Positions 14,594 through 60,720 of a stretch of 64,000 nt of DNA are shown here, in pieces. The notes under the pieces were generated by a model, which was not told where the DNA came from, ran no database searches, and saw only the letters and a program-made list of their open reading frames with translations. The stretch comes from Eledone cirrhosa (Eukaryota): positions 158,038,001-158,102,000 of the forward strand of contig OZ024743.1 in assembly GCA_964016885.1 (NCBI GenBank), written 5' to 3'. A program made the translations under genes and the position numbers. Positions within the stretch are counted from its first letter, which is position 1; each line of letters begins with the position of its first letter.

Positions 14594-14745
14594 ACATATG
14601 TACATATATATATATATATGTAGGAGGTGAGTTTTATTGTAGTACAATAAAGCAATGCAGATATCGGATAAGAAGCACTCTACAGTTTGTAGGACTGGAG
14701 TATACATAATATATAAGATCAAAAGATGGTTAAAAGAGTTCCATG

Positions 14746-14816
14746 TATTTTATTATGCGCATTTCAAAAACAAATATCATCATGCAATAATATTTGTGTT
14801 TTCATCAGATAAAATA
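14746..14816 (-). ncRNA. Type I hammerhead ribozyme (mirror copy, same sense as OS9 pre-mRNA)
   Basis: Same fold as 14935-15005, with palindromic helix III GAAAUGCGCAUA. Confidence 0.75.
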
Positions 14817-14934
14817 GGAAGACATGATATGAAGGTTAAAAAACACTTGTGAATAGTACAGTTTTAAATCAACATATGTTGATTTAAAATTGCACTATTC
14901 ACAAGTGTTTTTTAACCTTCGTATCATGTCTTCC

Positions 14935-15005
14935 TATTTTATCTGATGAAAACACAAATATTATTGCATGATGATATTTGTTTTTGAAATGTGCATAATA
15001 AAATA
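14935..15005 (+). ncRNA. Type I hammerhead ribozyme
   Basis: Helix I UAUUUUAU/AUAAAAUA; core CUGAUGA (14943-14949); long helix II (CAAAUAU/AUAUUUG); GAAA; helix III AUG-UG-CAU; predicted cleavage after A14997. Confidence 0.75.
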
Positions 15006-15083
15006 CATGGAACTCTTTTAACCATCTTTTGATCTTATATATTATATATATATATATGTACATATATAAGTACATATATATGT

Positions 15084-15124
<41 letters not shown>

Positions 15125-15202
15125 TATATATATATATATATATATGTACATATATATATATGTACATATATATATATGTACATATATATATGTACATATA
15201 TA

Positions 15203-15390
15203 TAACAAAGGAATTGTGGTAAGGAACCAGATGGACCATAACGCACCAGAGTACTCACTACTTAGGGTAGTAGAGTGGGAATAGGAAAAAGTATGACCCC
15301 GATGGCAGAGCTCAAGCCGTTTCGACGGCTATTTCTGTCCAGAAATAGCCGTCGAAACGGCTTGAGCTCTGCCGTCGGGGTCATACTTTT

Positions 15391-15395
<5 letters not shown>
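15203..15395 (-). mobile_element. Short fold-back element centred on a hammerhead helix II (PLE-derived)
   Basis: Inverted repeat 15281-15395. Each arm carries GAAACGGC-loop-GCCGUC (helix III plus GUC), but no CUGANGA. A second copy is at 42688-42892. Confidence 0.75.
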
Positions 15396-15436
<41 letters not shown>

Positions 15437-15676
15437 TATATATATATATATATATACAGTACTTACGTATCGAGAGAGAGAAAAAAAAAGGGGAAGATAG
15501 GTGATACATATAGTTATTTGCCAAGTAGCGTATGCCAAAGGTGCTCGATACTAGTGCCGGCAGTATTAAATATTCAAAGTGTTAATATTTAGTGGGCTAG
15601 AAAATTAGCAGAGCGTAAGCACGTGGGAAAGTAAGAAATCGGAGAATAGACCGTTAAAACATGTTTATTTAAAACA

Positions 15677-15716
15677 GCACCTACATACGTTTCGCCCAGT
15701 TGAGCTTCTCAAGGGC
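15677..15716 (-). ncRNA. Degenerate or variant hammerhead motif in a PLE-like tail (about 15458-15752)
   Basis: GCCC-UUGAGAA-GCUC AACU GGGC-GAAAC GUAU GUA-GGUGC. The 5' core deviates from CUGANGA. Confidence 0.35.
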
Positions 15717-15757
15717 ATAAATAATCAAAAGTGTTCCTTACATTGCCCGGAAATATA

Positions 15758-15809
<52 letters not shown>

Positions 15810-15832
15810 TATATATATATATATATATGTAC

Positions 15833-15918
<86 letters not shown>

Positions 15919-15921
<3 letters not shown>

Positions 15922-18900
15922 CTTTTCTGGGTGGGAAACGACAATGGGCTGGGTGGAGTAGGAATCATGGTAGCAGAAAAGTGGGCAGATAAGATAATAG
16001 ACGTAAATAGAGTGAACGACAGAATAATTAAAATAAGACTTGTCCTCAATAGAACTACGGTGACAGTAATATCCGCGTACGCACCCCAATCCGGACTGCC
16101 CAGCACTATAAAAGACAGATTCTATGAGACACTGATGCTCACTACCTCCCAAATAACCGACAGTGACTATATAATTATTGCAGGCGACCTAAACGGTCAC
16201 GTTGGACAACATTGTGACGGCTACGACGAAATCCATGGAGGCTATGGGTTTGGTACTAGAAATGAGGAAGGCTCCAGAATCCTGGAATTCTGCGACGCAA
16301 ATAACCTAACTATCTGCAACACTAACTTCAAAAAACGAGACAATCACTTGATCACCTACAGATCAGGGGAACATACTAGCCAGGGAGATTATATCCTTAC
16401 CAGAAGACGTGACAAAGTGACTGTCGTATACACTAAATCCCTCCCCCATGAATAATGCACTTCCCAACATAGACTGATAATTAGCGACCTAATAGTCAGG
16501 ACGAGACGTACTAGACAACAGAAGAGGACTATCCTCAGGAGAAAAATATTGAAGCTAAAGGACCCCACAGCCAAAAATAAATTCCAAAGCATATTACTTG
16601 ATGCTTTCGACAGTGAGGAAGAGCAATTAGAGACGTACAAGGTAGAGGAACAGTGGGAATTCCTGAAAGCAAACCTGCTGACGGCGGCAGACGAAGTCTG
16701 TGGCTGGAGCAGGCCTGTAGGCAGGAGGAGAGTAACATGGTGGTGGAACAGTAAGGTGGAGGGGTCAATTAAGGCCAAAAAGCAGGCTTGGAAAGTATGG
16801 AAAGTATGGCGGGATGGGGGAAGCAGAGAAGACTATCAAGTGGCCAGGAGGGAAGCTAGGAGACAAGTGTACTTCGCAAGAAGGGAAGCAGAGGAAAGAA
16901 AGTTCAAGCATGTTCTACAACGTGAGGACCAAAAACGTGAGGTGTTCAGGATTGCTAGGCAATGTGTCAAGGAAAACAGTGATATTGTCGGGGAGAAGTG
17001 TGTACTTAACGATGACGGCATACTTGCCATCACCGACGCCGATAAGAAGGTAGCTTGGAAGTGTCACTATGAAAGGCTACTAAATGAGGAGAATAAATGG
17101 GAGAAAGACAGTCTCCCCCACATCGACCCAATAGAGGGACCAGCAGTGTTAGTCGAGGGTAGTATAATAAGTAAGGCAATCAAAGATATGAAGACAGGCA
17201 AGGCGGCTGGGCCTTCGGAAATAGTTGCCGAGATGCTGAAGGCATCTGGTACGGTGGGACACACCATGGTCACCCGGATAGTCAACCAAGTCATACAGAA
17301 TGGGGTTGTTCCGAAGGACTGGCACAGCAGCATTATCGTTAACTGTTATAAGGGTAAAGGAGATGCCCTAGATAGGAGTAACTATAGAGGCATTAAATTA
17401 ATCGACCAGGTCATGAAGGTCACGGAAAAAGTTATAGCGCAACTAATCAGAGAGCGAATTGATCTAGATGAAATGCAGTTCGGGTTTGTGTCAGGAAAAA
17501 GTACCACAGACGCTCTTTTCATTGTACGACAACTACAGGAGAAGTACCTAGCTAAAAGTAAACCCCTATACTTAGCTTTCGTCGACTTGGAGAAGGCCTT
17601 CGACAGAGTCCCCCGTTCCATTATCTGGTGGGCTCTTAGAAAACTAGGTGTTGATGAATGGCTTGTGAGAGCTATACAAGCCATGTATAAAGAAACAGTC
17701 AGCAAGGTTAGAATTAACAACGAATATAGTGAAGAGTTTAGTGTAAAAGTTGGTGTTCATCAGGGCTCTGTTCTTAGCCCCCTACTATTTATTATTGCCC
17801 TCCAGGCTATAACAGTGGAGTTCAAGACCGGCTGCCCATGGGAACTCCTATACGCAGATGATCTAACGCTCATAGCTGAATCAATGGCCGAGCTAGAGAA
17901 GAAATTCCAAACATGGAAGCACAGCCTAGAATCAAAAGGCCTTAAAATTAACCTGGCTAAGACTAAAGTTCTAGTTTGTAAGAAAGAAAATAAGGCGGCG
18001 GTCCCCTCCGGGAAGTGGCCATGCGCAGAGTGTAGGAAAGGCGTAGGTAGAAATTCCATTTTGTGTCCCAAATGCAAAGTTTGGGTGCATAAAAGATGTA
18101 GTGGGATCACAGGTAAGCTAACTAAGAACATAGATTTTATATGTGGCCGGTGTTCTGGGGAAATAAGTAGCAGCAAGTGCCCGCAAAATACTAGCTCTTT
18201 CAACTGCGCAGAGGGTTCTATAGAAATAGTGGACAGCTTCCGTTACCTGGGTGACAAAATCAGCAGTGGGGGAGGGTGCTCTGAAAGTACAGTAGCTAGA
18301 GTCAGAACTGGGTGGAAAAAGTTCAGAGAGCTTATACCACTATTAGCCGCTAAAGGGTTCTCCCTAAAAATGAAAGGCAGGCTGTACGATGCCTGCATAC
18401 GAACAGCAATGTTGCATGGCAGTGAGACCTGGGCATTGTGTGCAGAGGATATACGCAGACTAGAGAGAAATGAAGCTTGCATGCTCCGCTGGATGTGTAA
18501 TAGTAATATACGTGAACGACAAAGCATAAACGAACTAAGGAAAAAATTAGAAATAAGAGGGATCAGATGTTGTTTACTAGAGAGAAGGCTACGTTGGTAT
18601 GGTCACGTGATGCGCATGAAGGACGATAGCTGTATAACAAAGTGCAGGGCAATAAAGATAGACGGTAGCCACGGAATAGGCAGACCCAGAAAAACCTGGG
18701 ACGAGCTGATAAACTCCGACCTCACACACTTACACCTCACCAAGACAATGTCACTGGACCGAGACCTTTGGCGGTACTCAGTAATAGAGAAGACCCGCCT
18801 TACCTAAATATAAAGTAAAACCTACTACAGTCAGTAGGCAGCTCTAACAAAATACACCCCCGTCCCACCACCCCCACCTATCCACACCGCCCCCTTCTAT

Positions 18901-19203
18901 GTAAAGTTATGTTGGTGCCACACCATCCAGGCCGAAACAAATGAGATCGTGTAGGTGTCACGACAAAAAAACACACAGTCCACGCTGTAATGTGGCCGTG
19001 TAGGCAACACGGTAAAAACCTCCCAGACCCACACTGTAAATGTGGTTGGTGTTAGGAAGGGCATCCAACTGTAGAAAACCTGCCAGACAGTCCTATGTGA
19101 GCAAGACAATCACTCTTGCCTCAAGTGGGAATACCCCCCCGTCCAAACCCATGCAAGCGTGGAACACGGACGTTAAACGTTGATGATGATGATGATGATG
19201 ATG
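15919..19203 (+). mobile_element. Near-intact, 5'-truncated RTE-clade LINE (APE + RT + PHD finger), (GAT)n tail
   Basis: ORFs 15931-16455 and 16549-18807 are in the same frame and separated by one TAA (16453-16455; GAA in the 9040 copy). Motifs AGDLNGH, QGSVLSP, YADD, FRYLG. Both ends lie in (TA)n. Confidence 0.95.
15931..18807 (+). pseudogene. RTE ORF2 with a single nonsense codon
   Basis: APE endonuclease C-terminal part, RT domain, C4HC3 finger at 18022-18153 and thumb/C-terminal region. Confidence 0.92.
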
Positions 19204-19285
19204 TACATATATATATATATATGTACACATATATATATATATGTACATATATATATATATATATATGTACATATATATATATATA

Positions 19286-19321
<36 letters not shown>

Positions 19322-19423
19322 TATATATATATATGTACACATATATATATATATATGTACATATATATATATATGTACATATATATATATATATATATAT
19401 GTACATATATATATATATATATA

Positions 19424-19482
<59 letters not shown>

Positions 19483-19484
19483 AC

Positions 19485-19535
<51 letters not shown>

Positions 19536-19608
19536 TATATAAATGAAAGGTATAGAAAATATTGTAGCAAAAAGCCAACAGTATTCCATAATATATATAT
19601 ATATATAT

Positions 19609-19915
19609 ATCATCATCATCATCAACGTTTAACGTCCGTGTTCCACGCTTGCATGGGTTTGGACGGGGGTAGTCCCACTTGAGGCAAGAGTGATTGTCTT
19701 GCTCGCATAGGACTGTCTGGCAGGTTTTCTACAGTTGGATGCCCTTCCTAACACCAACCACATTTACAGTGTGGGTCTGGGAGGTTTTTACCGTGTTGCC
19801 TACACGGCCACATTACAGCGTGGACTGTGTGTTTTTTTGTCGTGACACCTACACGATCTCATTTGTTTCGGCCTCGATGGCGCGGCACCAACATAACTTT
19901 ACATAGAACGGGGTG
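19609..19915 (-). mobile_element. RTE 3' end, inverted relative to 18895-19203
   Basis: Near-identical reverse complement of the preceding element's 3'UTR. Confidence 0.9.
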
Positions 19916-20115
19916 TATATATATATATATAAGAATTAAAATACTAGAATGTGTTGGAGTTAAACACCCTCTTCATATTATAGAAATGACAGTATAAGAT
20001 ATAGCTCAATGTAATTAAACAGAGCCGAAGAATTTTTATAATATATATATATATATATATATGTGTGTGTACATATATATATATATGTGTACTGTACATA
20101 TATATATATATATAT

Positions 20116-20768: not shown

Positions 20769-20832
<64 letters not shown>

Positions 20833-20849
20833 ACATATATATATATATA

Positions 20850-21455: not shown

Positions 21456-21595
21456 CATATATATATATATATATATATATATGTGTACATATATATATAT
21501 ATATGTGTGTACATATATATATATGTACATATATATATATATATGTGTACATATATATATATATATATATGTGTGTACATATATATATATATATA

Positions 21596-21661
<66 letters not shown>

Positions 21662-21799
21662 TATATATATATATGTACATATATATATATATGTGTGTGT
21701 ACATATATATATATGTACATATATATATATATATATACACATATATATATATATGTACATATATATATATATGTACATATATATATATATATATACATA

Positions 21800-22250: not shown

Positions 22251-22280
22251 TATATGTACATATATATATATATATTCATA

Positions 22281-22583: not shown

Positions 22584-22659
22584 TACATATATATATATAT
22601 ATGTACATATATATATATATATGTACATATATATATATATATATATATACATATATATA

Positions 22660-34168: not shown

Positions 34169-34233
<65 letters not shown>

Positions 34234-34320
34234 GGAAAGTTATATTTAAAATTGTTGGGTTACAACTAGTAAATATTTATAACTGATATAAAAGCACTCG
34301 ACAAATATTTGGAGTATATT

Positions 34321-34693
34321 TATAATATTAAATAAATGGAAACTATATTTATAAAACCATATTTATTTCATTATATATATTTCGGGGATATCATATTAAC
34401 AATATGCTATGCCTTCCTCAGACAAAATACAATATAAACAGTTTTATAGATAAATAGATTCGACATACCGTTATAACACCGACTTGCATTTGAAGAGGTT
34501 AAACTGGCAGTCTAACCTCTTCAAATGCAAGTCGGTGTTATAACGGTATGTCGAATCTATTTATCTATAAAACTGTTTATATTGTATTTTGTCTGAGGAA
34601 GGCATAGCATATTGTTAATATGATATCCCCGAAATATATATAATGAAATAAATATGGTTTTATAAATATAGTTTCCATTTATTTAATATTATA
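34321..34693. repeat. 373-bp near-perfect palindrome carrying two hammerheads
   Basis: 186-bp arms centred on 34507. The left arm continues to about 34231. Embedded in (TA)n. Confidence 0.92.
34585..34650 (+). ncRNA. Type I hammerhead ribozyme (mirror copy at 34364-34429, minus)
   Basis: Helix I UAUUUUGU/AUGAAAUA; CUGAGGA; imperfect helix II (CAUAUU/AAUAUG core); GAAA-UAUAUA-UA. Confidence 0.65.
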
Positions 34694-34710
34694 TATATAT
34701 ATATATATAT

Positions 34711-35385
34711 TGGGTGTCCTTTTACATCATGGATCACAGGCCTCGCGCACCAGGACTGAACAAAGTCTGATTCACCGTCTTGGATCCTATTCCCCTCTTG
34801 GACTCAACTCACCTCCCCAATTTCTCTAATACCTATCACTTTCTCTTGATCATTAGCAGCTTCTCTTACTATTAATGCATGCTGATATACACCCTTATAT
34901 TAACATACATTTGCTCATAGCTTCGTACTTACATGCACACACACACTCTTTTACTCACATATACACACACATTTCTTCTTAGCTTTGTACGGACCTATAA
35001 TAACACACACACACACACACAAACACATGCTTACACACGTACTCAAGTATAGCTCTTTTTACAAAACGTTTTTTTTTCCATTTCAGGTAGACACGTGCCA
35101 TCATCCACTTTTCTAAAAAAAACAAATCATGCACAAAACACCAACTCCAACAGTTTTGCAAGAGATGTCAACATGAATGGACCTGTTATTTTTATCTAAA
35201 GACATTTTTTCCAATTCCATCCCGCCCGTCCCCTCAATCTATTTTACTTCTCATTCTTTCTTCTGATGAAGGACTAGCGTCCGAAACGTTAAGACCCTCT
35301 TCCTGCTATATCAAGCGTTAACCTAATATATACCTTCCATATACTGTACCGATTGTGTTGTTATTTCTGTTTACCTTTTACATAC
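34711..35385 (+). mobile_element. Penelope-like element 3' end/pLTR
   Basis: GVLLHHGSQASRTRTEQSLIHRLGSYSPLGLN (C-terminus typical of PLE GIY-YIG domains), followed by an HHR. Confidence 0.75.
35259..35294 (+). ncRNA. Minimal type I hammerhead ribozyme
   Basis: UCUU-CUGAUGA-A-GGAC UAGC GUCC-GAAACGUU-AAGA. Helix III is reduced to the palindrome ACGU. A decayed copy is at 43059-43094 (minus). Confidence 0.75.
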
Positions 35386-38358: not shown

Positions 38359-38399
<41 letters not shown>

Positions 38400-38541
38400 T
38401 TTGAGTATATGTTGGTTGTATACCAACACCTCTGTATGCAGATTGGAGCACTCAACGAAGTGTGCAGGTTGGTTTGGTTACTCCGGAGTAGTGTAAAATA
38501 AAATAAATAAGTCAAATGTTTTAAATTTGTCTTCATTTATT

Positions 38542-38596
38542 ACTGCTATATAGATTTCGGTGACAGCCATCTTTGACGGTGACCTCTTCAGGCAGT
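38542..38596 (-). ncRNA. Type I hammerhead ribozyme in the 3' pLTR
   Basis: ACUGC-CUGAAGA-GGU..helix II..ACC-GAAA-UCUAUA-UA-GCAGU. Confidence 0.8.
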
Positions 38597-39251
38597 CCAA
38601 ATTAGTGCGGTAGAGACGAGTACACATGTTGTTGAGGTGTTTAACTTTGTCAATACTCTGATATGCCCACTTCCTGGTTGGGTTGTTGTTTCACTGAGGA
38701 ACTGGAATCATATGAATTTAAACAAACGAATTTCAGCGTCAGAGGACATCTTCTCCTCTCATTGGTCAGTTGTGAGAACATTCCTCAGTCAAAAGTCTAT
38801 AGAAATTCGTTCTGAGGCGAGGCAATCTGTAGTGGTTGTTCTTGTTATTGTTAAGTACATCTGACCTCTACTCTTATGTTGGTAGTGGTGTTGGTGTTGG
38901 AGTCAGCTCAAAAAATGATAAAATGGTAGAAGGAATAAGATGGTAAAGGAGCAAAATAAAATAATCAAATAAAATGTGTGTGTGTGTGTGTGTTATAACC
39001 AATCTCAACTTAAATAGAAGGCTATAAAGTGAAGAAAACAGAAAACAAATGAAAAATCAAGTAAAATAAAATGTGTGTGTGTTATAAAGATTAGGAAGGC
39101 TATGTCAATTAGGAAGGCTGTGTCAGAATCAATCTCTAGGATATCATGGTGTCTGCTCAGCCTGGGTGGGTCCCTATGGCTTGAGGGGAGTTCCCAACCT
39201 ATGGTGTTGTTACTGCCCATATAGCTTGAAGGAGGTCTGGCCGAGAGGTGT

Positions 39252-41819
39252 CTACATGTTCTGGAGAAGTCCATATAGCTTGAGGAAGGTCCCGGCCCTG
39301 AAGTGTCTGCATGTCCCGAAGAAGTCGGTTCTGAGGTTTATCAGGCGGCTTCCACCTCTTAGTATCTCGAGGGTCTCGTTCAGACATAGTTTGCATATGT
39401 CAGATCCCCCTTTATCGGGTGGTACTTTCCTGATTATGGACCAGGCCAGAGAGTACGGGGTCCTGTCTAGCTTAAGCTTCCAGATCAGGTCGGAAAGAGC
39501 CGCACTTTTCCTTTTGACCTCCTCATTGAAGGAATGGCGATGGTTTTACCAACGGTCTTTAAAGCTCGTTGATCTGGCTCCTGTGTAGAGGTGTTCGGAG
39601 TTGGGGGTTTTAACCCTACATCCGTATATTAGGTTCTTCTTAAGGCATTCATTACTAAGGGGGCATGATTCGGGGTTTCTGCTGTTGCAGAGGGTGGTCG
39701 ACCTCTGCGTGCCTAGTGTGGGGTTTCCGTTACGTGTTACATGGTGATCTTCCCCCGGGCCCGGTGGGGGTCCCCGTGTCTGTTTGAGTTTCTTGGGTGG
39801 GCACTGGGTCCCCCCTTCCCTCCTCCCACATGGTTCTGCTGGGTGCTTATATTGCCATCTTCTGGTTGTGTGTGGTTTTTAAGCCTACTCCTGTTGATGC
39901 TAGCTATGTGTTGGGCCAGATTTCTCGTGGTGGAATACGAGAGCTTCACAGTGTGTCTGTTGAAGATCTTGTGGTATCTATGGTCCCTCGGGAAGCATTT
40001 ATCAAGTGCTCCAAAGAATGATCGGGCCAAGCTGTTCTTTAGAGCCGCTAAGTAGGGTGGGTTGTACCACGTGATTGTTCTGCGTCTACTCCTATATGGG
40101 TGGGTTGGGGGCGTCGTCAGTTGTTGGAGAGTTGTTGGGTTGCTGGTGGTTCCCGCATTGTTGCTTCCCCTTTGGGCGCTATGCGTTTTGCTATCTTCAC
40201 GGCACGAATCTGTGGGGTGGTCCCCCCCCCCCCCCGACGTGTTGGGGTCGTCGGGCCCTGGTGGTTAGCATCACCCCTGAGACTGCTACTCATATTGGGT
40301 TTCTTCTCATGGTTAAGTGTACTCGTCACCATCGCCAGTGTGGTGGTGTCGGGCTCATGGTGCTTATTTGTTTCTGTTCTGCCTTTATTGTTAGGGTTCG
40401 CCCCCTCCCGGAAAAGCGGGTGTGGGTGTCCGTTGGGCCATCCCCATCCCGGCGTCTCGGACTATATGTTATATTTTGGTCATGTGCCGCCTTATTTAGA
40501 GCTGTGTTGTAATATTCCGCGTTGTTATCGAAGATTTCCTTATTTGCGGACAGGCTGAAGATCCTGTCCGAGACACTCTTCACCATGGCCTTGGTTATGG
40601 ATCTAGGGTTGTTTGACTTGGCGTTAACATACACAAGTTTCTCGTTGGGCTTGTGATAGGGGTAGTATTGTTCGGTGTTCAGGTTTAGGGTGGTGTCTAG
40701 GAAGTTAACTACCTTTCTATTTGGGTCTAGTTCGATACTGAGCTCCTGGTTCTTAAAGAAATGGCGAATACGCCTCCTCATTCCATCCAACATAGTGGTG
40801 CCATGGTCATATACTGTGAAGAGAGCATCGTCACGATATAATCCGTCGCCCAGGCAGGGGATTTCATCTTTTATCTGCTTCAGCAGGAAGAGCCCAACCA
40901 GGTCCCTTACCTGTGCTGAGTCGCTGGAGCCCATCGTGATGTCAAAGTTATTTGGCCAATCACTCCTGGTCCAAAGGTCTCCATCGAAGCAGATTAAGGT
41001 CTTTCTTGCGGCGTGGATGATGCTCACCTCATCTCGGGTTAGGTCCGTATTGGACATCGCTAAAAATAGGGCCTTATTGAGTACTATGGGTGAGATTGAG
41101 GAGTAGTAGCCTGCGATATCCAGTTGGATAAAGCTGGTCTTACTTTTCTCATGTAGTATCTTAAACCAATCTATTACCTCTCCCGTGCATGACCATTGCT
41201 GTAATCTAGTTTTTTTTTTCCGAAGCTTGGGCAAAATCCTATCTAGTATTCTTTTACTGACGATCCCTAGGTCAGATCTGGAGGGGGCTATTAGTCTGAC
41301 AGGGAGGTCGGACTCAAAGTTTGGCTTGTGATCTTTAAAGGTAATCCGCGGATCCCTTGGTTGGTATTGGGCCGTCCTGTCCTTTATGCCGAGTCCAGAT
41401 ATAATCCTGTAAGCTGTGGCATGGACCTCATCCAGGGTAAATCCAGGTGTTTTTGTGTAGCACTTCCTCAGTTCCCTGAGAATTATCTTATTAAACAGTT
41501 CAGTGTCCATGTTGTAAAGGTTGTTGTTGGTTTTGTCAGCATGGAAAAATATTCCAGTTGTCTTTTTAAGTACTGTAATTCGGTTTCTCAGGTGTCTGGG
41601 GTACTCCTGACTTCTGGGTGGGTTTCCGGAGAATTTGAGGTTGGAGATAATGTTAATCCTCTCGTTTTCAAACTCCTCCATTAGTCTGTTGTGGGCGGGA
41701 TTCCTCCTTGATCGAAAAAGGTACGAGGGAGTCCGTACTCCTGATGAGATCACTGGTGTATTCTCGTTTGCCAGGTAGGGGATGTCCTTCAGTGACGCTA
41801 AGGTTGCCAGTTTTTCCAT
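39252..41819 (-). pseudogene. PLE RT-GIY-YIG ORF, disrupted
   Basis: RT ORF 41819-40326, frameshifted linker (WYNPPY, KIFNRHTVKLSYS), then CNSRNPESCPLSNECLKKNLIY...LYTG...FKDRW*NH...CKLCLNE...GTCRH. One in-frame stop near 39547. Confidence 0.88.
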
Positions 41820-42513
41820 AGTGACTTAAGTCCGCTACTGTTTGAAGCGCTCAACCCGTGGAGGAGCTAGATACATTTTGAGTATATGTTGGTTGTATAC
41901 CAACACCTCAGTATGCGGATTGGAGCACTCGACGAAGAGCGCAGGTTGGTTTGGTTACTCCGGAGTAGTGTAAAATAAAATAAATAAGTCAAATGTTTAA
42001 AATAACAACAGGGAGCCCCACCCCAGAAAGAATTTCTATAGACTTTTGACTAAGGAATGCCCTCAAAACTGACCAATGGGAGGAGTGACCTTACAAATCT
42101 TTCTAAAATTGAGATTGGGTATAACACACACACATTTTATTTGATTATTTTATTTTGTTCCTTTACCATCTTATTCCTTCTACCACTTTATCATTTTTTT
42201 TAGCTGACTCCAACACCAACACTACTACCAACATAAGAGTAGAGGTCAGATATACTTAACAATAACAAGAACAACCACTACAGATTGCCTCGCCTCAGAA
42301 CGAATTTCTATAGACTTTTGACTGAGGAATGTTCTCACAACTGACCAATGAGAGGAGAGGATGTCCTTTGACGCTGAAATTCGTTTATTTAAATTCATAT
42401 GATTCCAGTTCCTCAGTGAAACAACAACCCAACCAGGAAGTGGGCATATCAGAGTATTGACATAGTTAAACACCTCAACAACATGTGTACTGGTCTCTAC
42501 CACACTAATTCGG

Positions 42514-42568
42514 ACTGCCTGAAGAGGTCACAGTCAAAGATGGGTGTCACCGAAATATATATAGCAGT
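42514..42568 (+). ncRNA. Type I hammerhead ribozyme in the inverted pLTR
   Basis: ACUGC-CUGAAGA-GGU..ACC-GAAA-UAUAUA-UA-GCAGU. Confidence 0.8.
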
Positions 42569-42605
42569 AATAAAAGAAGCCAAATTTTAAACATTTGACT
42601 TATTT

Positions 42606-42676
<71 letters not shown>

Positions 42677-42687
42677 TATATGTATAT

Positions 42688-42889
42688 ATAGGAAAAAGTA
42701 TGACCCCCGACGGCAGAGCTCAAGCCGTTTCGACGGCTATGTCTGGACTAGGAGTCCAGAACTAGCCGTCGAAACGGCTTGAGCTCTGCCGTCGGGGTCA
42801 TACTTTTTCCTATTACCCACTCTACTACCCCAAGTATTGAGTACTCTGGTGCGTTATGGTCCATCTGGTTCCTTACCACAACTCCTTCG

Positions 42890-42892
<3 letters not shown>
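42688..42892 (+). mobile_element. Second copy of the helix-II fold-back element
   Basis: Inverted repeat 42688-42813 plus an 80-bp tail. Same end points as 15203-15395, longer central loop. Confidence 0.8.
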
Positions 42893-42929
<37 letters not shown>

Positions 42930-47364: not shown

Positions 47365-50300
47365 TCATAGGCTATTTTATTTTTCCGGACATCGATTGTG
47401 GGGCTCCCCAGGGGCAGATAACCCCTTAAGCCTCTCGCTTGGAGTCAGCAGTACTACTGCATAAAGGCCCCATAATTCCTGCAGTTTGCCTCCTATCTTC
47501 ACCAAAATTAATCTTTTGTTTAAATTTTCAGGCATGCACTTACTCAGAAATTCAGGTAGGTGACCCCTTGAGGGGCAGTAAACCGACTTGATGAATGTTG
47601 AAGTTGATATCATCAATGCAACAAAACGTCATAACTGCTTGAGTTGGTGTTTGGTTTTCATGAAGCGAGACGTATAAGTTACCGATGGTGAACACATGAA
47701 CTTTTACTTGAACTTATCAAGGGGACCCGGGGGGGGGGGGGCAGTGAGCCCCTTCGACTTATCTATTGAAGTTCACATTAACACTGTATTAGTACCTGAT
47801 AACTTTTGAAGTTTACGTTCGATTTTAACTTTACCGGACACATTGGTTACCCATTGCCTAAAGATGATGTTGAAGATACTGTCTATACCTGGTTCAAGCA
47901 AGGGGACCCCAGGGGGCAGTAAGCCCCGGCAAGTAATTTATTGAACTTAGCTATTGTAATGCAGCAAAGCATCATAGCTTCAATAATTGGTAGGCCAATA
48001 AAACAAATTTCGACTTAGTTGTTATTCATGTACTACAGATGAAGATACAGTGAGGCACATTTACTTTCATTTCAATTCAGCAAGAGGACCCCCTCAGGGA
48101 CAATGAGCCCAATTCATTAACCTATAAAAGCTTAAACTGCCACAATAAAAAAGCACCATAACCTCAGGAGTTTATACTTGATTCTTACAAAAATTAAACG
48201 AAATGGTTATTGCCTGCCATAAGATAAAGCACCACACATTCGTTATCACTTGAATTTTGCAAGGAACCCCCTAGGGAGGGCAGTGAGCCCCCTTGGACCA
48301 CTTTTAAAGTTCATATTATGGTTGCAGCAAAGCATTTCAACTTCTGGAAATAAAAATCAATTTAAACGAAAGTTGACGCATCGGTTACTCATGTCCTACA
48401 AATGGAGTAGCGAATTTTTAAATCCCCCTGACTTAACTTTAATTTGTTTAGTTAACTTTAGGATGATTGAATTTAATTTTGCACCCGGTTGTCTCCCCCG
48501 TGTTTTGCACCACAATTAAGTGCGGAATGGGAAGTTAAATTTTTTTCCTTGAACTTTGGCGTCATTTCACACTCCTAACCAAGAAAGCGCAATTTAACCC
48601 AGGTGTAAATTTTAACACCCACTGTATGTGGATCGTGGTATTTCACACTCATGCCTAAACTGTGCGAATGATTGATTAGTGTTTGCACCCGGTTGTCTCC
48701 CCTGTTTAATTGCACCTCAATTAAGTGCGAAATGGCGACCTCTGGCCAACCACACATCAGTGAGTTGTGTTCAGTAGATTTCATCACACTTATTTGTATT
48801 ATCTAACCAATCAGACAACTCGAGTGTTGTTCATTGAGCGAAATTACTCCTATTTATATCGGTCAAGTCCGACCTAGGATCACACTTCTTTTTTTGCTTT
48901 TGACAAGTGGTAGGTTTTTTTTACATGCGTACTCTCATAAGCTACCACATGTTTCTGAAATGCATGCTTCTTCAACATTTGTCACCTTAAACAAGGTTTA
49001 GTTAATGTGTTTATGGTCATAAGGTTCCAGTTTATCATGCTGTGATTTTTCGGCCATTTTTGCGTGTATCCTTTCAATGGTTAGTACTTACTTATTGCTA
49101 TGTTTAAACTGAACAAACATACTGACACTTATATACCTACCACTGTAGCCACACTATTTAATTTCCTTTATCACAGGTAGACCGTACGCTGCGTTGCCCC
49201 TAACTTAAAACCTGAAATTTGACTGGTACACAAAATCTTGCAAAACATACCCACTTTCTCAGACCACATAGATTTATCACATTTTTTCACAATTTATATC
49301 CGTGTTTAGATTTGTTTACTTAAACGTTATTTGTCCACTATTTATCGTTCTCCCTGGTTAATTTTCTAAAAACAATGTCCCCCAAGAAAAGAACTTTCAT
49401 TGGTCGATTATCTAATGATGCAAGTAGGTCTAAGCGAAGGCGTCTCACCGAAGATGTAAATGTGACTGCGATCAGGCTCTCACAGAATGCTGTGCAGACG
49501 GCAGCTGCAAGAGTGGACGAGGATGACTGACAGTGTGAACTTTGACGGAACAAAGATGCTGCTGCGACTGGTGCTACTCGCGCTGAAGAAGATGAAGGAT
49601 GACATGCCGTTCGATGAAGCAGGGACGCCACTACAACAGCCGTTGCTCACGCGCGAGAGGATGAAGGACGACACGCCGTTCGACAAAGCAGGGATGCCAC
49701 TGCAACAGCCACTGCTCGCGCTCGAGAGGATGAAGGACGACACGCCATTTGACGTAGCAGGGATGCCGCTGCCACTGCTGCTGCACGAAATACTGAAACC
49801 ATAGAGCAATGACGTGGCCAACTTCTGCAAAGTGAACAGCGGCGATCATCGTTACGTGGCATTTCTAGGACTTGCAATTCACGATGGTTGTTGAAGGCCT
49901 TTTACTACGACCCCTCCTCCAACTACGCCATCCATGCAGATATTCAAATTAGGGAAATTACCTATGTTTGCCAGTTTTGTCGTACAAAAAAGTGACCAGG
50001 AGAGAGAGATGGAATGTGCTGTTCAAACGGTAAAGTTAGACTACCTTCTATTCACGACCCTCCAGAGACATTGCAACTCTCTTTGACAGACACGACAGAG
50101 GAATCATCAAAGTTCTGAGTAATATCCGCCGCTACAATTCCGCGTTTCAGATGACACCCTTCGGAGCAAAGCTTGCCTCGGAACGTGGGTTCATGCCAAC
50201 TTTCAAGATTCAGGGGCAGATCTATCACTTGATTGGGTCTATTCAACCTCTGGCAGAAAAGGATCCTCAACCTCTTCAGTTATACTTCGTCTGAAACTAT

Positions 50301-51002
50301 CAGGAGCAGGCAGAGATGCAAAACTCTATTTTGTCCGAAACTAACATTGAAACCATAATAAAACTTCAAGAAATGCTTCATGACATAAACAGCTATGTTC
50401 GCAGTTTCAAGTACGCTTTGGAAACAGCCACTGACCCAAACTTGATTGTGGTCATACATGCTAACCCAAAGCCATCTGGAGAACACGCTGGTCGGTTCAA
50501 CGCACCAACATGTAATGAGATTGCTGCGGTTATTTGTGACAAGAGAGATATCATTCTAAAGCACCGAGACAGCACATTACAGCGTATCAATGAGACACAC
50601 AGGTCCTACGATGCACTCCAGTATCCATTGCTATTTGTCAACGGCGAGGACGGATGCCATTTCGGCATTCCTCAACATTCAGCAGGCAATGGTGAGGCAT
50701 ATCTTAGCAAAACTGTCACCTGCATGGATTTCTACGCTTTCCGATTTATGGTAAGGGACAATTCATTCAACCATCTACACCGTTCTTGGGACCTTTTCCA
50801 ACTTTAAATTGTTACCATCGGATTTGTCTTTGCTGGCAGCACCGCCGCAGAGATATTTCAAAGTGAACGTTCAAAGGCCCTCTTTAGGTCCAACACCTAT
50901 AAATTGTTACTTCTATAGTCGTGTTTAACGGAAGTATTTCAAATAATTTGAATGACTACTCCATTGAGACTTATACCAGGCAACGCCGGGTACCTCTGCT
51001 AG
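47365..51002 (+). mobile_element. Internally deleted Helitron (5' boundary uncertain)
   Basis: Decayed RepHel N-terminus 49375-50807 (CQFC..GMCCSNGKV, NIRRYNSAFQMT, FKIQGQIYH, HAGRFNAPT, HRSYDALQYPLLF). 3' end ccaggcaacgccggg hairpin followed by CTAG|T at 50999-51003. Confidence 0.85.
49375..50807 (+). pseudogene. Helitron RepHel N-terminal region with 23-aa repeats
   Basis: MSPKKRTFIGR..., about four 69-bp repeats at 49510-49800 (EDEGRHAVRQSRDATATATARAR), several stops. Rep catalytic and helicase domains are absent. Confidence 0.8.
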
Positions 51003-51779: not shown

Positions 51780-52450
51780 TCCCTTGTGACTTATGTAATG
51801 ACCCTCCATATCTCTACAGGGTCCAAAAATGATATACCAGTACCGAGTACATTCATAAGTTGAAGAAGGGGAAATTAATTAATTACCGTATTTCCCAGCA
51901 CCGAAGACACTTCGTCCTAGAGGATGGACCCTAATGTTGACAACCAAAAATTTGAAGAAAAAAATAGTAATCATCCTTCGACCTCCAGGAAGCATGGTTG
52001 ATTTTTTAGACTTATTTTAGGAAAAAAGTAGCGTCTTCGACGCCGGGAAATACTGTAATTAATTAATTCTAAGAACTGGCTTACTGCAACAATAACACCG
52101 ATTTCTCTGGCCATCGCCAAATCAAATATATTCTCTATTCTCTGTTTGTGTTTGTTGTAATTCCTTTTATTGATTAACTAATTAGGCAATCTACACCTAA
52201 TGATGACACCTGGATCTTATGTAACCAGGCCATTGAAGTATATATAGTGTTTTTTGCAACAATAAAACTTTAAAGGGAGATTTCCAGTCTGGCTTTCTGA
52301 TGTTTTAATTAAATAAATATTTAACTCCATTCCTACACCAGCTACTGCATTCAACATCTACATAGAGTGCTTTTCTTACTATTACATCATAGTTAACTAA
52401 ACAGAATGATAAGTTCGACACTTTGCTGAACCACACAACATAAATGAAAT
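51780..52450 (+). mobile_element. Decayed PLE 3' end with degenerate hammerhead (52193-52250)
   Basis: CDLC remnant; ACAC-CUAAUGA-..CCUGG/CCAGG..-GAAG-UAUAUA-UA-GUGU (two core mutations); downstream TAACTCC...GAGTGCT. Confidence 0.55.
51886..52055. mobile_element. Tc1/mariner-superfamily (pogo/Tc2-like) MITE, 170 bp
   Basis: TIRs CCGTATTTCCCAGCACCGAAGACAC / GCGTCTTCGACGCCGGGAAATACTG with TA on both sides. Confidence 0.85.
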
Positions 52451-53080: not shown

Positions 53081-53095
53081 TATATATATATATAC

Positions 53096-55544: not shown

Positions 55545-55810
55545 GGGAGGGAAGAATTTTCATCCATTCTGGAATTAGAAGTCATGGAAGCTTTGAATAG
55601 GATGCCTAACGATAAGGCTGCTGGTATCGGTGACCTGCCTGCAGAGCCTTTAAAGACAGACAACGAAGCAATGATTAAGATATTGTGCCGACTATGCAAT
55701 AGAAATGTAGAAATAGGTGAGTGGCTTGCTAATTGGAAGAAGGCAGTTTTTATTCCCATACCAAAGACTGTTGGAACAACGAAATATACAGAGCCTCATA
55801 CGATCTTTAG
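55545..55810 (+). mobile_element. RTE/BovB-like RT N-terminal fragment
   Basis: EVMEALNRMPNDKAAGIGDLPAE...WKKAVFIPIPK. Confidence 0.7.
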
Positions 55811-56730
55811 TGGAGATGTATAATGGAATTACATTTTGAGCAAAGTCCTTCTGAGTGAAAAACAATTTTTTATGTTTAGAGTAGCATTGCTACCCCAAAC
55901 ATTTAAATCTCTCTTCCTCTCTCTCTCTCTCTCTCTCTGCCTCTCTCCCTTCCTCTCTCCCTCTCCCCCTCTCTCTCCCATTCTCTCTCTCACTCTCTCT
56001 TTCTCTCTCTTTCTGAAAAAAATGCTTTTACTTAAAAAATATCAATTACATCTTCCCATGATATGCAAACTTATCCAAATTTACAAACATAACTAATTAA
56101 CTAATTACAACCTACACTGACACCACAGATATACTTTCTTGTTAATGGAATCACCAAAATAGAAATGAAATTCTTCATGGATATCTCAAAATTTGGCTAA
56201 CTTTAAAGAACATGATATCTCTCAACCTCCATACTACTACTAGAACAAAATTACAGGAACTTAAGAGTGTAATACATGTTTATCAGATTCTCTGCAAGGT
56301 TCGATTATTTTTCTTATTCTTTTACTTTTCCCCAACTTTCTTTCTTTATCACTCCCTTCTCCTCCCCTTACTTACTTTATGCTAGTTTCCATTATTTTCT
56401 TGTCTTTCTATTTTACTATTTATTATTATAATTTCTCAGTTGGTTAGTTTAACAACCAGATAGTTGTTTATTTGTTGATTGTCAAAGTTCTTTCATCGCA
56501 CATTCTGTGACCTCCTCAGTGACTGTTTTTGTTGTTACTTTGTGTCTCTCCTTTGTTCTGCTTTACATCATCTTGTTTTTTGTCTGTGCTATCATTGATA
56601 CTTTTGTTTTGTAATTTCTTTCTCTTTTTCTGTCTGTGTATATATTTATATCATATATATATATATATATGATATATATATGCATAGTTATCTATCTCAT
56701 ATCTTTCTATCTGATTATCCATGTCTCAGC

Positions 56731-56733
<3 letters not shown>

Positions 56734-56814
<81 letters not shown>

Positions 56815-57400
56815 ATCCCTCTTTTACCATTCACAGTTGAGCATAACCATTTTATTCAGTTTCATATTTCCAGTAGCAAAATGGTAAGGAATACACTGAA
56901 CACAATAATTTCATTATATTATATGTTTAATTCTTCATCTTTTTCCTGCTTTCTCTTTTCTTTCTTCAAATCGTGTTTTTGATTTTAGTTTCCTTGCGTT
57001 TTCATTTTTCTAAACATTTTTTTTATTGCTTTCGTGTTCATTTTTCTTTCTTTATTTCCATCTGTATTTTCTTTCATTCATTTATTCATTCATTCATTCA
57101 TTCATTCATTCATTCATTCATTCATTCATTCATTCTTGTGTATTTCATACTTTCCATCTTTTTGTTGTTGTTTTGTTTATTTATTTATTTATTTATCAAT
57201 GCCTTCATTCATCTTTCTTTTCTTACACACCCTGACATAGTAGTTCTTACAATCAATTTTTGTTCTATTGTTTTTTTTTAATTCCCCTTTCCCCTCCTTG
57301 TAGCTTCTAGTTTCTTTATTCTTAGATTCTTCCTTCTTCCTTCCTTGCTTCCTTCCTTCCTTCCTTCCTTCCTTCCTTCCTTCCTTCCTTCTTCCTCTTC
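56734..57400. repeat. Microsatellite cluster: (CT)n, (TTCA)n, (TTCC)n
   Basis: Direct reading at 56734-56810, 57076-57135 and 57330-57392. Confidence 0.9.
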
Positions 57401-57951
57401 TTTCCTTTTTTCTCTGCATCTTCATTCAATTCACCCCCTTTCCCTATCTATCCCCCATCCAAACATATTTTATTTTATATTTGAATATTAATTTTAAATA
57501 GAAACAAAAGTATTATTTGATACTTTTGACATACGAAATAGCTTTTTTGGTTTATTTTTATTTTTTACTTATCAGATTAGGAAGGACAATGCCCATCACC
57601 TTAACCTAAAAAAAGATGACAAAAGTATAAATAATTGTTTCTAATTTTGGCACAAGGCCAGCAAATTTCAGTGGAAAGGTAAGTTACGAAATCAACGCTA
57701 GTACTTAACTGATACTTTAACCCTTTACTATTTACATTACTCTATATTGTATTTTTGTGGTAAAGGCTTTATCTTTGTTTTTGCCTTTCGTCATATTTCA
57801 TTACTTATATAAAAAAAAAAGGGCAGTTGATTGGCAGTATCGGTAGAGCGTCAAACAACATGCTTTGTGGCATAGAGTTACAGCCAATGTATACTTCAGA
57901 AATACTATATTTTTTCAACCGTTCAACAGATTGGCAGAGAAGTAAATAGTC

Positions 57952-57989
57952 CTGATGATGGGTAATGACCCAGAAACAGGTTCATTGTT
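57952..57989 (+). ncRNA. Partial hammerhead motif
   Basis: CUGAUGA-UGGGU AAUG ACCCA-GAAACA-loop-UGUU. No convincing helix I. Confidence 0.4.
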
Positions 57990-58209
57990 TCTCGATGCCA
58001 TTGTTAAACAATCAGATGACGATTGGTCATTGGCAGAGCACAGCTTTATCAGGCCGTTTGATTGCAAACAAATAAAATATTAATATTAATGTTCATATGT
58101 GTGTGTGTATATATTTATATATATGTATGTGTGTACATATGCGCGCTTACATTTATGTATCAACTGTGCTAGAGCAAGAAATAAAATTCAAATTTTATTT
58201 ATATATAAT

Positions 58210-58621
58210 GGAGGCACATGGCTTAGTGGTTGGAGCATTGGCCTTGCAATCGAAAGGTTGTGAGTTCAATTCTCAGACCAGGTGATGTGTTGTTTCCTTG
58301 AGCAAGACACTTTATTTCACATTGCTCCAGTTTACTCAGCTGTAGAAATGAGATGATAGGGACTGGGGTCCATATCATACCACTGCAAAGTGGTCGTGCA
58401 GGTGCCACGGCAAAAAAAAACACCCAGCACTCACTGTAAATGAGGTTGGAGTTAGGAAGGGCATCCAGCTGTAGAAATCAAGCCAGAATCAGTTCCCGTC
58501 CCACCCTGGCAAGCAGGGAAAAAGCGGACGTAAAATGAAAATGAAAAAAAATATATATATATATCAGTTCCCGTCCCACCCTTGCAAGCAGGGAAAAGCG
58601 GACGTAAAATGATGATGATGA

Positions 58622-58623
<2 letters not shown>
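58210..58623 (+). mobile_element. Full-length CORE-type SINE with RTE tail, plus duplicated 3' terminus
   Basis: tRNA-like head at 58210, core ccttgagcaagacacttt, RTE tail to about 58543. The last 60 bp are repeated at 58563-58623. Confidence 0.85.
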
Positions 58624-58654
<31 letters not shown>

Positions 58655-58810
58655 ACTCGCCTACAATTCCCCTCTCTTCCACTGTAAACACTTTGTATAC
58701 GCACACACACATACTAATATACGCATATGCACAAGTGTGCATATCGATGTATGTGTATATGTATATGTATATATATGTATGTATATATATAAATATATAT
58801 ATACATATAT

Positions 58811-59963
58811 ATATTATTCAAAATATTAATAAATGAAGACGTTCACATAATCAAAATATATGTTTTATTATATATATTTCGGAGGTACTGTGCTGTTTTT
58901 TCAGTACGTCCTCATCAGATAAAATATATGAATTGATGTATGACATACTTCAACAGTCTTGATGGTTCAATTCCAGTATTGGCAGCGATTTATTACAACA
59001 AACCTCAATATTTATATACACAAATAATAACATGATAAACTTAAATATGATGAAGAAGAGGATGTAGAGCGAGATATAAGTATAAGGAGGGGGTGAGTAT
59101 GAGAAAATGTAAGAAGAAATAAATAAACACATACGTACATAAATATTTAAATATTTAAATGCGTAAATATCTGTGTTAGGGAAGAAAAGGAAGAGAGAGA
59201 TAGATAGATAGAAGAGAAGAAAGAAGAAGAGAGAAAAGTTTTGATTTTTGAATTTTGTAACAAAATATTGAATATATTTATTAATTGAACTATGCTTCTG
59301 ATTATTATAGAAAATATTTTTATATTGTTTAATTTTGATATAATATATTAGTATAATTAGCTCAAACATAACCAAATACAAAAGATATTAAAAATTTCAC
59401 AGTATTTAATTGGTCGCTTCTATTTGACTTATTTGACTTAATATTTGAAAACAATGGTCACGCATCATGTCCCTTTCTTCTTTCTTTTTTTCTTTCTTTC
59501 TTTCATTCTTTCCTTTTTGCAGTTACGTCTTCCCTCTTCTCTCTCTCTCCTTCTATCTTCTCTTCTTTTTTCTCTCTCTCTCTTCCTTTTCTTCCCTAAC
59601 ACAGATATTTACGCATTTAAATATGTAAATATTTATGTACGTATGTGTTTATTTATTTCTTCTTACATTTTCTCACACTCACCCCCTCCTTATACTTATA
59701 TCTCGCTCCACATCCTCTTCTTCATCATATTTAAGTTTATCATGTTATTATTTGTGTATATAAATATTGAGATTTGTTGTAATAAATCACTGCCAATACT
59801 GGAATTGAACCATCAAGACTGTTGAGGTATGTCATACATCAATTAATATATTTATCTGATGAGGACGTACTGAAAAAACAGCACAGTACCTCCGAAATAT
59901 ATATAATAAAACATATATTTTGATTATGTGAACGTCTTCATTTATTAATATTTTGAATAATAT
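58811..59963. repeat. Large inverted repeat of a PLE-type pLTR (about 390-bp arms) carrying two hammerheads
   Basis: 58811-59200 is the reverse complement of about 59572-59963. The right arm continues to about 60055. Confidence 0.9.
59850..59911 (+). ncRNA. Type I hammerhead ribozyme (mirror copy at 58863-58924, minus)
   Basis: UUUAU-CUGAUGA-GGA C GUACUG..CAGUAC C UCC-GAAA-UAUAUA-UA-AUAAA. Confidence 0.8.
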
Positions 59964-60053
59964 TAATAACTCAACAAACTTCCTTGTAGAGTGCTTTTAA
60001 TATATTGTAGAACTATATTCATTGAGTAATCAATGAACCATAATAATCTTTGG

Positions 60054-60084
<31 letters not shown>

Positions 60085-60087
<3 letters not shown>

Positions 60088-60720
60088 CTTCAAAATATTA
60101 ATATAGACATTCATGTGATCAAATATATTTTATTATACATATTTCAGAGGTACTGAGCTATTTCATCAGTACGTCCTCATCAGATAAAATAAATTGATGT
60201 CTGACATACCTCAACTGTGCTGATGGTTCAATTCCAATCTTGGCAGTGATTAGTTATGACAAAACTCAATATTTATATACCATAAGTTGTAACATGAAAA
60301 ACTACATATAATAAAGAGTGTACGTAGGAAAATGTGTATAAAAATATATAATAATAAATATATATAAAGGCAAGTAATAAATATAAACATAAAACTACAT
60401 AACTGTTAAAAATGTAAATAATAAAATATGTATACCTCCGTATTTGTAGAAGGAGAAAATGAGAGGGGGAGAGGACTAACAGGAGGAGAGAGAGAAAAGG
60501 AAAGAGAGATGATAGTAAAACAAAAAAAAGAGAGATATGTATGGTAACATATAATTACATAAGGAGAAGGAGAATCAAGGTATATGATGCGTGACCATTT
60601 TTTTTCAAATATTAAGTTAATTAGAAATAATCATTAATTAAATAACTTGAAATTGTTAGACTATAATATTTGAAAGAACCTATATTACTGTATTATATCA
60701 AAATTAAAACAAATATAAAG
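60085..60720 (-). mobile_element. Third, more diverged copy of the same pLTR, with HHR at 60127-60190
   Basis: Reverse complement similarity to about 59320-59963; CUGAUGA-GGACGUACUGA..UCAGUACCUCU-GAAA. Confidence 0.8.

Follow-up and report, generated by a model that had tools for sequence, protein, structure and literature searches.

The window analyzed here is a 64,000-nt stretch of the Eledone cirrhosa genome (contig OZ024743.1, positions 158,038,001 to 158,102,000, assembly GCA_964016885.1), and it holds several families of Penelope-like elements (PLEs), here named A to E and M, inserted into (TA)n. We found that downstream of the predicted hammerhead these elements carry a bulged stem-loop in two copies, stem-loop 1 (SL1) and stem-loop 2 (SL2), that the outer ends of the insertions lie a few nucleotides 5' of one or the other copy, and that inverted pairs of arms nearly always combine one end of each kind. 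We consider it fairly probable that both stem-loops act in the element RNA as binding sites that place the reverse transcriptase (RT), with copying starting about 3–8 nt 5' of each. The original prediction, made from the window alone, had described a single ACTC...GAGTGCT hairpin in four families with a long arm and a short inverted arm. All ten of its motif coordinates read correctly, and the arms align where it had placed them (A, 14701–14880 with 14871–15050; C, 38498–39019 with 42101–42613; D, 58811–59234 with 59542–59963; B, local alignment of 34284–34506 with 34508–34729, the exact inverted match ending at about 34321/34693). What it had missed is that the motif is doubled and that the second copy accounts for the tail end. 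The features are listed in Table 1.

The order of the module is hammerhead, AU-rich spacer, SL1, SL2 and the ATG of the open reading frame (ORF). Each stem-loop is composed of RCTC, an upper stem, a variable loop, the partner of the upper stem, a 2-nt bulge on the 3' side and GAGY-RCT. In copies that read past the tail end (E2), the second motif, GCTC...GAGCGCT, follows directly after that end, as at 41846–41867 of the window and in locus L121. The spacing from SL1 to SL2 is 90, 90, 99 and 96 nt in families A, B, C and D, which equals the length of the tail, and 55–83 nt in metagenome loci, while SL2 lies 7–42 nt upstream of the first ATG (26 nt before the ATG at 41819 in family C). A search of the 3.0-Gb genome with the doubled pattern GAGTGCT N48-75 RCTC N5-25 GAGCGCT gave 885 matches against 8 for a reversed-pattern control, an enrichment far above chance. 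Among 50 loci from the first 100 matches listed (30 as given and 20 picked for variety), the doubled motif spans at least ten families.

The motif is also present outside this genome. We selected 78 metagenome loci by protein alone, drawing on the 80 best-ranked of 443 relatives, and grouped them into 56 clusters; 38 of these clusters, with 200 nt upstream of an N-terminal anchor, were used as the motif test set. Two motifs were found in 24 clusters, one in 10 and none in 4; by eye, two of the latter have GAGC-TCT variants and the other two are cases of a false anchor or truncation. Shuffled sequences yielded one motif in 46 of 1900 cases and two in 0 of 1900, windows within ORFs yielded one motif in 4 of 288, and reverse complements yielded one in 5 of 38. 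Both copies in the metagenome elements are spelled GCTC...GAGC-ACT. GAGY is followed by G in both stem-loops of families A–J, but by A in family M and in 77 of the 86 stem-loops from metagenomes; such a concerted change would fit one protein reading both stem-loops. In the accessible part of Craig et al. 2021 (PMC8557442), stem-loops are visible by eye in three of six Hydra-clade consensi (both at the 5' end in Ajap-1, SL1 after the hammerhead in Ajap-2 and Amil-2) and as variants in a fourth, Crog, with nothing clear in Amil-1 and Obim-1. Exact GAGTGCT has 10 matches in the accessible supplement of that paper and none in its Hydra consensi, because other animals use GAGCACT. The motif is a real, clade-wide and apparently undescribed cis-element in a known class of elements.

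Genome searches with the pseudo-long terminal repeats (pLTRs) revealed two fixed outer ends per family, the short end E1 and the tail end E2, with partner arms stopping genome-wide at query position 160 (A), 186 (B), 187 (C) and 174 (D). For an unbiased set we used tail-free queries ending short of E1 and took the 30 best arms each of families B, C and D, which are the best-scoring and hence young copies. As a result, 82 of the 90 arms end no more than about 8 nt before SL1 or SL2. Family B divides into 17 arms at E1 and 13 at E2. In family C, nine arms end 4–8 nt and six 16–33 nt before SL1, 14 end at E2 and one ends 17 nt before SL2. In family D, 20 end at E1, one ends further upstream and nine end at E2, one of these nine (the window's own) having been placed by inspection, as the reference differs there. 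No end inside a stem-loop and no read-through occurred among these 90 arms. The fixed end that had been predicted for the short arm is therefore real, but the proposed distance of 3–4 nt is better taken as 3–8 nt because microhomology with (TA)n blurs the exact end base. The solo copy at 60085 ends in the same manner, as had been noted. Moreover, 11 of 15 metagenome copies with flank end 0–4 nt before a stem-loop (8 further copies stop at contig ends and were excluded), and the same ends bound full-length elements (family C of the window and L121) and are met again in distant relatives. When contigs from three public runs were compared with a read-through copy of family B, loose (TA)n ends and depth steps showed at both predicted places; one of the three samples may derive from the window's own genome.

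The ends are neither random nor explained by fading into (TA)n, which we rejected as their cause: a perfect 9-nt TA run lies 65–70 nt upstream of SL1 in families B, C and D and is used by no classed arm end. Run-off at the hammerhead cut was likewise rejected, since only one or two inner ends lie near the cut among 93 inverted units; the family C reference is itself truncated, so family C says less on this point. The distance from the hammerhead core to SL1 varies (69–103 nt in metagenome loci and 105–111 nt in A–D) while that from end to stem-loop stays at 0–8 nt. The original prediction had included the hammerhead in a module defining where RT starts or the nuclease nicks. The hairpin plausibly does set the RT start, but a place for the hammerhead in the end-defining part is not supported, as its distance to SL1 varies and ends do not pile up at its cut. 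To judge from the sequences, the motif acts on the donor molecule and not on the target, because the (TA)n target is without it and an E1 copy excludes it. As for the inner junctions, those of families A, B and D are concentrated 65–90 nt upstream of the hammerhead core, in part through query bias; fold-back centres lie for example at 14880 and 34506 of the window, with a short palindrome at that of family A.

The two ends are combined according to a strict rule. We counted as E1 the ends from -22 to +3 relative to SL1 and as E2 those from -26 to +3 relative to SL2. On this basis 93 of the 102 inverted pairs in families A–D are E1+E2, one is E2+E2, none is E1+E1 and eight have an unclassed end; the tail-free sets alone gave E1+E2 in 25 of 27 pairs. 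Single arms split about evenly between E1 and E2, so independent choice would give E1+E2 in only about half of the pairs. Most of the junctions were formed separately, since the 93 units have 86 distinct lengths within families, from 219 to 1469 nt. The same holds for family M, whose arms were gathered as by-catch across all own-genome loci: 104 arms comprise 44 at E1, 59 at the tail end and one elsewhere, and all 36 pairs (36/36) are E1+E2. This pairing, together with ends that lie just before SL1 and SL2, makes the tail equal to the SL1–SL2 spacing.

We further focused on the structure of the motif in a set of 86 stem-loops from 44 clusters, chosen on lower-stem sequence only. With a 2-nt bulge, Watson-Crick pairs occur at upper pair 1 in 84 of 86 (60 C-G and 24 U-A), at pair 2 in 52 of 82 and at pair 3 in 33 of 51. 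The corresponding means in shuffled sequences were 0.57, 0.29 and 0.26, the observed values being reached in 0 of 2000 shuffles, and bulge lengths of 0, 1, 3 and 4 nt fail this pairing test. The bulge is TT in 58, TC in 15 and TA in 11 stem-loops, and ACT comes next in 75 of 86. Covariation was found on an RT tree of 33 rows (quick method, loci only, two rows being partial ORFs): at SL1 upper pair 1, six changes occurred on the 5' side and six on the 3' side, six of them jointly, so that all are two-sided. The lower stem covaries as well, with A-U in SL1 of this genome and G-C elsewhere, and the inner part of the loop varies from 8 to 19 nt, reaching about 55 nt in family E. Since the loops vary and the changes are two-sided, the motif folds as a single strand, with which the loop lengths agree better than with a duplex site. 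The hairpin of the original prediction is thus conserved and tied to the end, but it does not consist of ACTC/GAGT alone, having also the upper stem and the 2-nt 3' bulge. In the fifth family, E, the predicted motif pair can be read, but the 3' half of the upper stem is deleted from the window copy; in other copies this stem is CGTT/AACG. A pairing of GCRC with GTGC within the family C loop was considered and dropped, as the 3'-tail copy folds by ACTC/GAGT plus the upper stem; the internal copy prefers that alternative fold.

The families are Hydra-clade PLEs according to their motifs and homologues. Craig et al. 2021 (PMC8557442) defined RWK, DKT and CxCx5C as hallmarks of this clade, and we compared published Hydra proteins with the families for these motifs by eye. 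In translation, the broken ORF of family C in the window reads as an RT containing DKT, followed by a linker and a nuclease at the C-terminus; it has 28 homologues at 31–40% identity, the sole named match being from a cephalopod. Read-through copies demonstrate that pLTRs of A, B and D type also lead into such ORFs. RWK is found near the N-terminus in A, B and C (L121, L168 and L138) as well as in 28 of the 30 ORFs from metagenomes, the remaining two being partial, and the window copy of C is broken at this place. The window ORF has DKT in place of DKG, and A, B and C have DKT/S. The CxCX5C linker before the C-terminal GIY-YIG nuclease is intact in the family A ORF and degenerate in the window copy of C; in family B its position falls beyond the stretch analyzed. 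Two absences expected in this clade, of a CCHH motif from the nuclease and of an insertion-in-fingers domain, were judged by eye only, on the homologue alignment and the translations. The pLTRs of A–D have CTGAnGA...GAAA cores, by which hammerheads are predicted, and all of these families are flanked by (TA)n. The accessible part of the same paper describes the same RWK, DKT, linker and C-terminal GIY-YIG-type nuclease for the Hydra clade, and also the pLTR hammerhead, the (TA)n targets, the inverted 5'-truncated copy and the tail at one end.

The families had been thought to share little besides the motif, and this did not hold: their ORFs are 49–55% identical among A, B and C (about 40–67% for D-type pieces) and 34–37% identical to two metagenome relatives, B and D share a 71-nt stretch at 75% identity, and A, B and C form one branch on the RT tree, so the ACTC/GAGT spelling common to these three is inherited and not convergent. 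In Pfam the pieces of the window ORF matched neither RT nor GIY-YIG models, and the clade assignment therefore rests on motifs and homologues. Nothing relevant, and no hammerhead, was found by Rfam among the best 150 of 282 matches in the window, all below the gathering score and nearly all being matches of (TA)n or hairpins to microRNA models; in eight metagenome loci Rfam gave four microRNA-type matches, none at the stem-loops. No relative was found in viral contigs, and no RNA run was listed as carrying the sequence. Non-LTR retrozymes, that is, non-coding head-to-tail hammerhead arrays, were rejected as an identification, as A–D are parts of coding elements and have short copies arranged as inverted pairs and not head-to-tail; family J comes nearest to the retrozyme layout.

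The closest precedent is PAc, a Poseidon-clade PLE of Anolis studied in vitro by Frangieh et al. 2024 (PMC11167929). [quoted passage not shown] Thus in PAc and in the families described here alike, the tail is delimited by a pair of fixed 3' ends, both lying downstream of the hammerhead. In contrast to our families, no conserved or duplicated recognition element is defined and no rule of one arm per start is stated in that part of the paper. In the PAc template (PMC11167929, accessible part, by eye) we noticed a stem-loop with a 3-nt 3' bulge from about +121, some 3 nt after the +111–118 start, and a short GGC/GCC repeat twice upstream; the bulged stem-loop is perhaps the Poseidon counterpart.

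From this precedent we infer the RNA nature of the signal, its binding by protein and the identity of the ends with RT starts. The PLE protein would bind each stem-loop in the RNA, and its GIY-YIG nuclease would nick both strands of the (TA)n target. One nicked strand would then prime at SL1 and the other at SL2, and the two complementary DNAs (cDNAs) would grow inwards and join at their truncated ends. Such twin priming, possibly by a dimer, is what the one-of-each pairing rule suggests, with one nicked strand per stem-loop. The template would be uncut at the hammerhead (tandem, read-through or circular), and the tail would be the piece between the two starts. A homodimer prediction scored 0.00, which counts neither for nor against. 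Tentatively, and with a slight leaning against it, we also put forward a broader version in which the stem-loop pair is a recognition code of PLE retrotransposition: each stem-loop would take one subunit, both target strands would prime in a single event, and such programmed twin priming would make the tail, its one-sidedness and the inverted pLTR. The presence of both stem-loops would then suffice for the insertion of any RNA, and in other clades the same part would be played by a bulged hairpin that is likewise duplicated but differs in sequence.

Related arrangements are found in other systems. In twin priming of L1, two target ends prime on one template and an inversion results, the second start being given by chance microhomology; here it would be given by a fixed second element, and no homology is claimed. 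The bulged hairpin epsilon of hepadnaviruses positions the RT start, with templating from its bulge and protein priming, and in telomerase a structured RNA surrounds the template. As to the PLE literature, earlier descriptions already cover the tail and its restriction to one side as well as the inverted arm (PMC8557442 and PMC3846280, accessible parts). Arkhipova 2013 (PMC3846280) describes the same one-sided tail and head-to-head inverted structure; however, inversion is attributed there to self-priming on an antisense template and here to two starts, one per stem-loop. Hammerheads in pLTRs have been described before (PMC4209133 and the retrozyme papers PMC7229834 and bioRxiv 10.64898/2026.07.22.740005). 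The accessible part of Craig et al. mentions no motif downstream of the hammerhead and quotes PLE tails of 30–40 nt, compared with 90–99 nt here (PMC8557442). Our literature search, with subscription journals and Repbase notes mostly outside its range, found no account of the motif, its duplication or the pairing rule.

Several observations weigh against the proposal that the stem-loops place RT on the RNA. Eight of the 90 arms end early, 16–48 nt before a stem-loop, 4 of the 15 metagenome copies end elsewhere (one being a read-through relative to a defective reference), and two arms, in L196 and L198, pass SL2 and end in (TA)n 75–85 nt later, possibly from a third start or a different subfamily. 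The strand counts at upper positions 1–5 are almost balanced (G-U 15 versus A-C 14; inside helices 6 versus 3), in 49 of 86 stem-loops it is the antisense strand that has the slightly lower folding energy, and only 66 of 86 retain the lower stem in their minimum-energy fold. SL2 is weaker than SL1 above its first pair; its upper stems are often of 1–2 bp, and 10 of 30 have U-U as the second pair. Moreover, by-eye inspection of the PAc template (PMC11167929, accessible part) found no RCTC/GAGY-RCT motif, so the precedent comes from another clade, and two starts 60–100 nt apart on one template would have to be used without collision.

The main rival is that the hairpin acts in DNA, as cDNA or a single-stranded donor, with the GIY-YIG nuclease cutting beside it and the ends being resolution cuts. 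The strand counts do not favour the RNA sense, an SL1 end with an SL2 end is also compatible with two cuts, Craig et al. (PMC8557442) attribute the tail to endonuclease-mediated resolution, and the Drosophila virilis endonuclease, as cited by Frangieh et al. (PMC11167929), needed the tail for recognition. However, for PAc, in vitro mapping with an RNA template placed the start sites at the ends of the tail (PMC11167929), and a cut cDNA end would require an extra step of joining to the target, so that we regard this explanation as unlikely. Quite improbable in our view is that the stem-loops mark the formation of an RNA 3' end just 5' of each, with RT starting there as in long interspersed nuclear elements (LINEs). 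This would equally account for ends at a constant distance from the hairpin and for copies that leave the hairpin out, but alone it leaves the one-of-each ends (93/102; 36/36) unexplained, and PAc starts internally, a longer RNA 3' end leaving the main product in place (PMC11167929).

Two further explanations do without any placing of RT. The stem-loops may be elements of the 5' untranslated region or promoter, adjacent by chance to ends that arise through A/T microhomology with (TA)n: SL2 lies shortly before the first ATG, pLTRs contain internal promoters (PMC8557442, accessible part), and the bases just 5' of the stem-loops are A/T-rich. Yet the upstream TA run stays unused, at neither end does the family C reference contain a TA run reaching 4 nt, family J keeps both stem-loops without a Hydra-type ORF, and chance microhomology would not be expected to produce the one-of-each rule. 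This reading is very improbable and is largely refuted as a cause of the ends, while a second role of the stem-loops in translation is possible. We give scarcely any credence to the copying of whole fold-back units in the manner of miniature inverted-repeat transposable elements, by which the ends and the pairing rule would be inherited from a few masters. Four B units do have one length, and, counted from SL1, inner junctions are concentrated near -180 in A, -196 in B and -175 in D, but the 86 distinct lengths of the 93 units argue against it, as does the sharing of ends with full-length elements and distant relatives.

Some of the families deserve separate mention. Family M, a very common short fold-back element, is a sixth family in the window, absent from the original prediction, and has the same stem-loop with GAGT-ACT. 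By eye its predicted hammerhead has a full stem III and a palindromic loop, with the cut about 25 nt before SL1; no read-through copy, SL2 or ORF was seen among the own-genome loci collected. Family J (L423; G000:C7:80110011-80113264) is a unit of 1.3 kb, flanked on both sides by a pLTR; it keeps hammerhead, SL1 and SL2, has no match to 33 Hydra proteins and gave 3552 first-look candidates in the genome; it is probably a non-autonomous passenger. Family K has fixed ends into (TA)n or (CA)n, about 15–20 nt apart; its tail is without the Hydra motif, and no read-through copy of it was seen. Locus L121 has three tandem 78-nt units at 7320–7560 that contain ACTC...GAGTGCT with a long loop. Outside the families studied, a further hammerhead-like core (CTGATGA...GAAAC) lies at 57952 of the window. 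A long RT frame (783 amino acids) at 16456–18807, preceded by an endonuclease-like piece, is presumably an RTE-like LINE by its motifs, with scattered remnants at 3703–4257, 5973–6461 and 61815–62324 and several copies ending in (ATG)n. The frame at 50295–50807 resembles what we take to be a Helitron Rep/helicase fragment.

Table 1. Features of the PLE families in the window (positions in the 64,000-nt stretch; hammerhead cores are predictions)
Feature	Position	Strand	Remark
Family A long arm (pLTR with tail)	14620–14880	-	Outer end E2 at about 14620, into (TA)n
Family A SL1	14674–14701	-	ACTC, upper stem CAGT/ACTG, TA bulge, GAGT-GCT
Family A predicted minimal hammerhead core	14762–14808	-	CTGATGA...GAAA
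Family A short inverted arm	14881–15045	+	Outer end E1, directly before SL1
Family M fold-back copy	15205–15391	-	SL1 with GT bulge; tail
Family B long arm	34230–34506	-	E2 at about 34230
Family B SL1	34293–34315	-	ACTC, upper stem CAAA/TTTG, TC bulge, GAGT-GCT
Family B predicted minimal hammerhead core	34380–34421	-	
Family B short inverted arm	34508–34693	+	E1
Family K, hammerhead-bearing end	35130–35385		Neptune-like ORF pieces in related loci
Family C 3' tail	38398–38494	-	E1 (about 38494) to E2 (about 38398)
Family C SL1	38447–38489	-	ACTC, upper stem CGGAGT/ACTTCG (one G-U), TT bulge, GAGT-GCT
Family C predicted minimal hammerhead core	38555–38591	-	3' pLTR
Family C broken Hydra-clade PLE ORF	39252–41819	-	RT with DKT, linker, C-terminal GIY-YIG-type nuclease; stops and frameshifts
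Family C SL2	41846–41867	-	Read-through upstream pLTR; GCTC, short upper stem, TT bulge, GAGC-GCT
Family C SL1, upstream partial pLTR	41924–41966	-	
Family C short inverted arm	42101–42612	+	E1 at about 42612
Family M fold-back copy	42690–42895	+	Inverted-arm E1 at about 42690, tail end at about 42895
Family M SL1	42819–42845	+	ACTC, upper stem TACT/AGTA, TT bulge, GAGT-ACT
Family E arm with decayed hammerhead and tail	52190–52447	+	SL1 at 52324–52371
Family D short inverted arm	58811–59234	-	E1
Family D long arm	59542–60055	+	Predicted hammerhead core 59856–59897; E2 at about 60055
Family D SL1	59969–59995	+	ACTC...TA bulge, GAGT-GCT
D-related single arm	60082–60317	-	83% to D; end at E1 (about 60085)

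The choice of start site in PLEs, and the origin of their one-end tail and inverted arm, have been open since the class was described, and the in vitro work of 2024 found two internal starts with no conserved signal, as far as its accessible part states (PMC11167929). A covarying element of about 20–30 nt (longer with a large loop) at a fixed distance from each putative start, throughout the clade, reduces the start-site question to simple mutagenesis and offers a structural target for an RT–RNA complex related to telomerase. It also supplies exact boundaries for the annotation of a very abundant repeat class and is a candidate for the minimal cis-signal that mobilises non-coding passengers. 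The strict geometric rule makes the question of PLE initiation directly testable.

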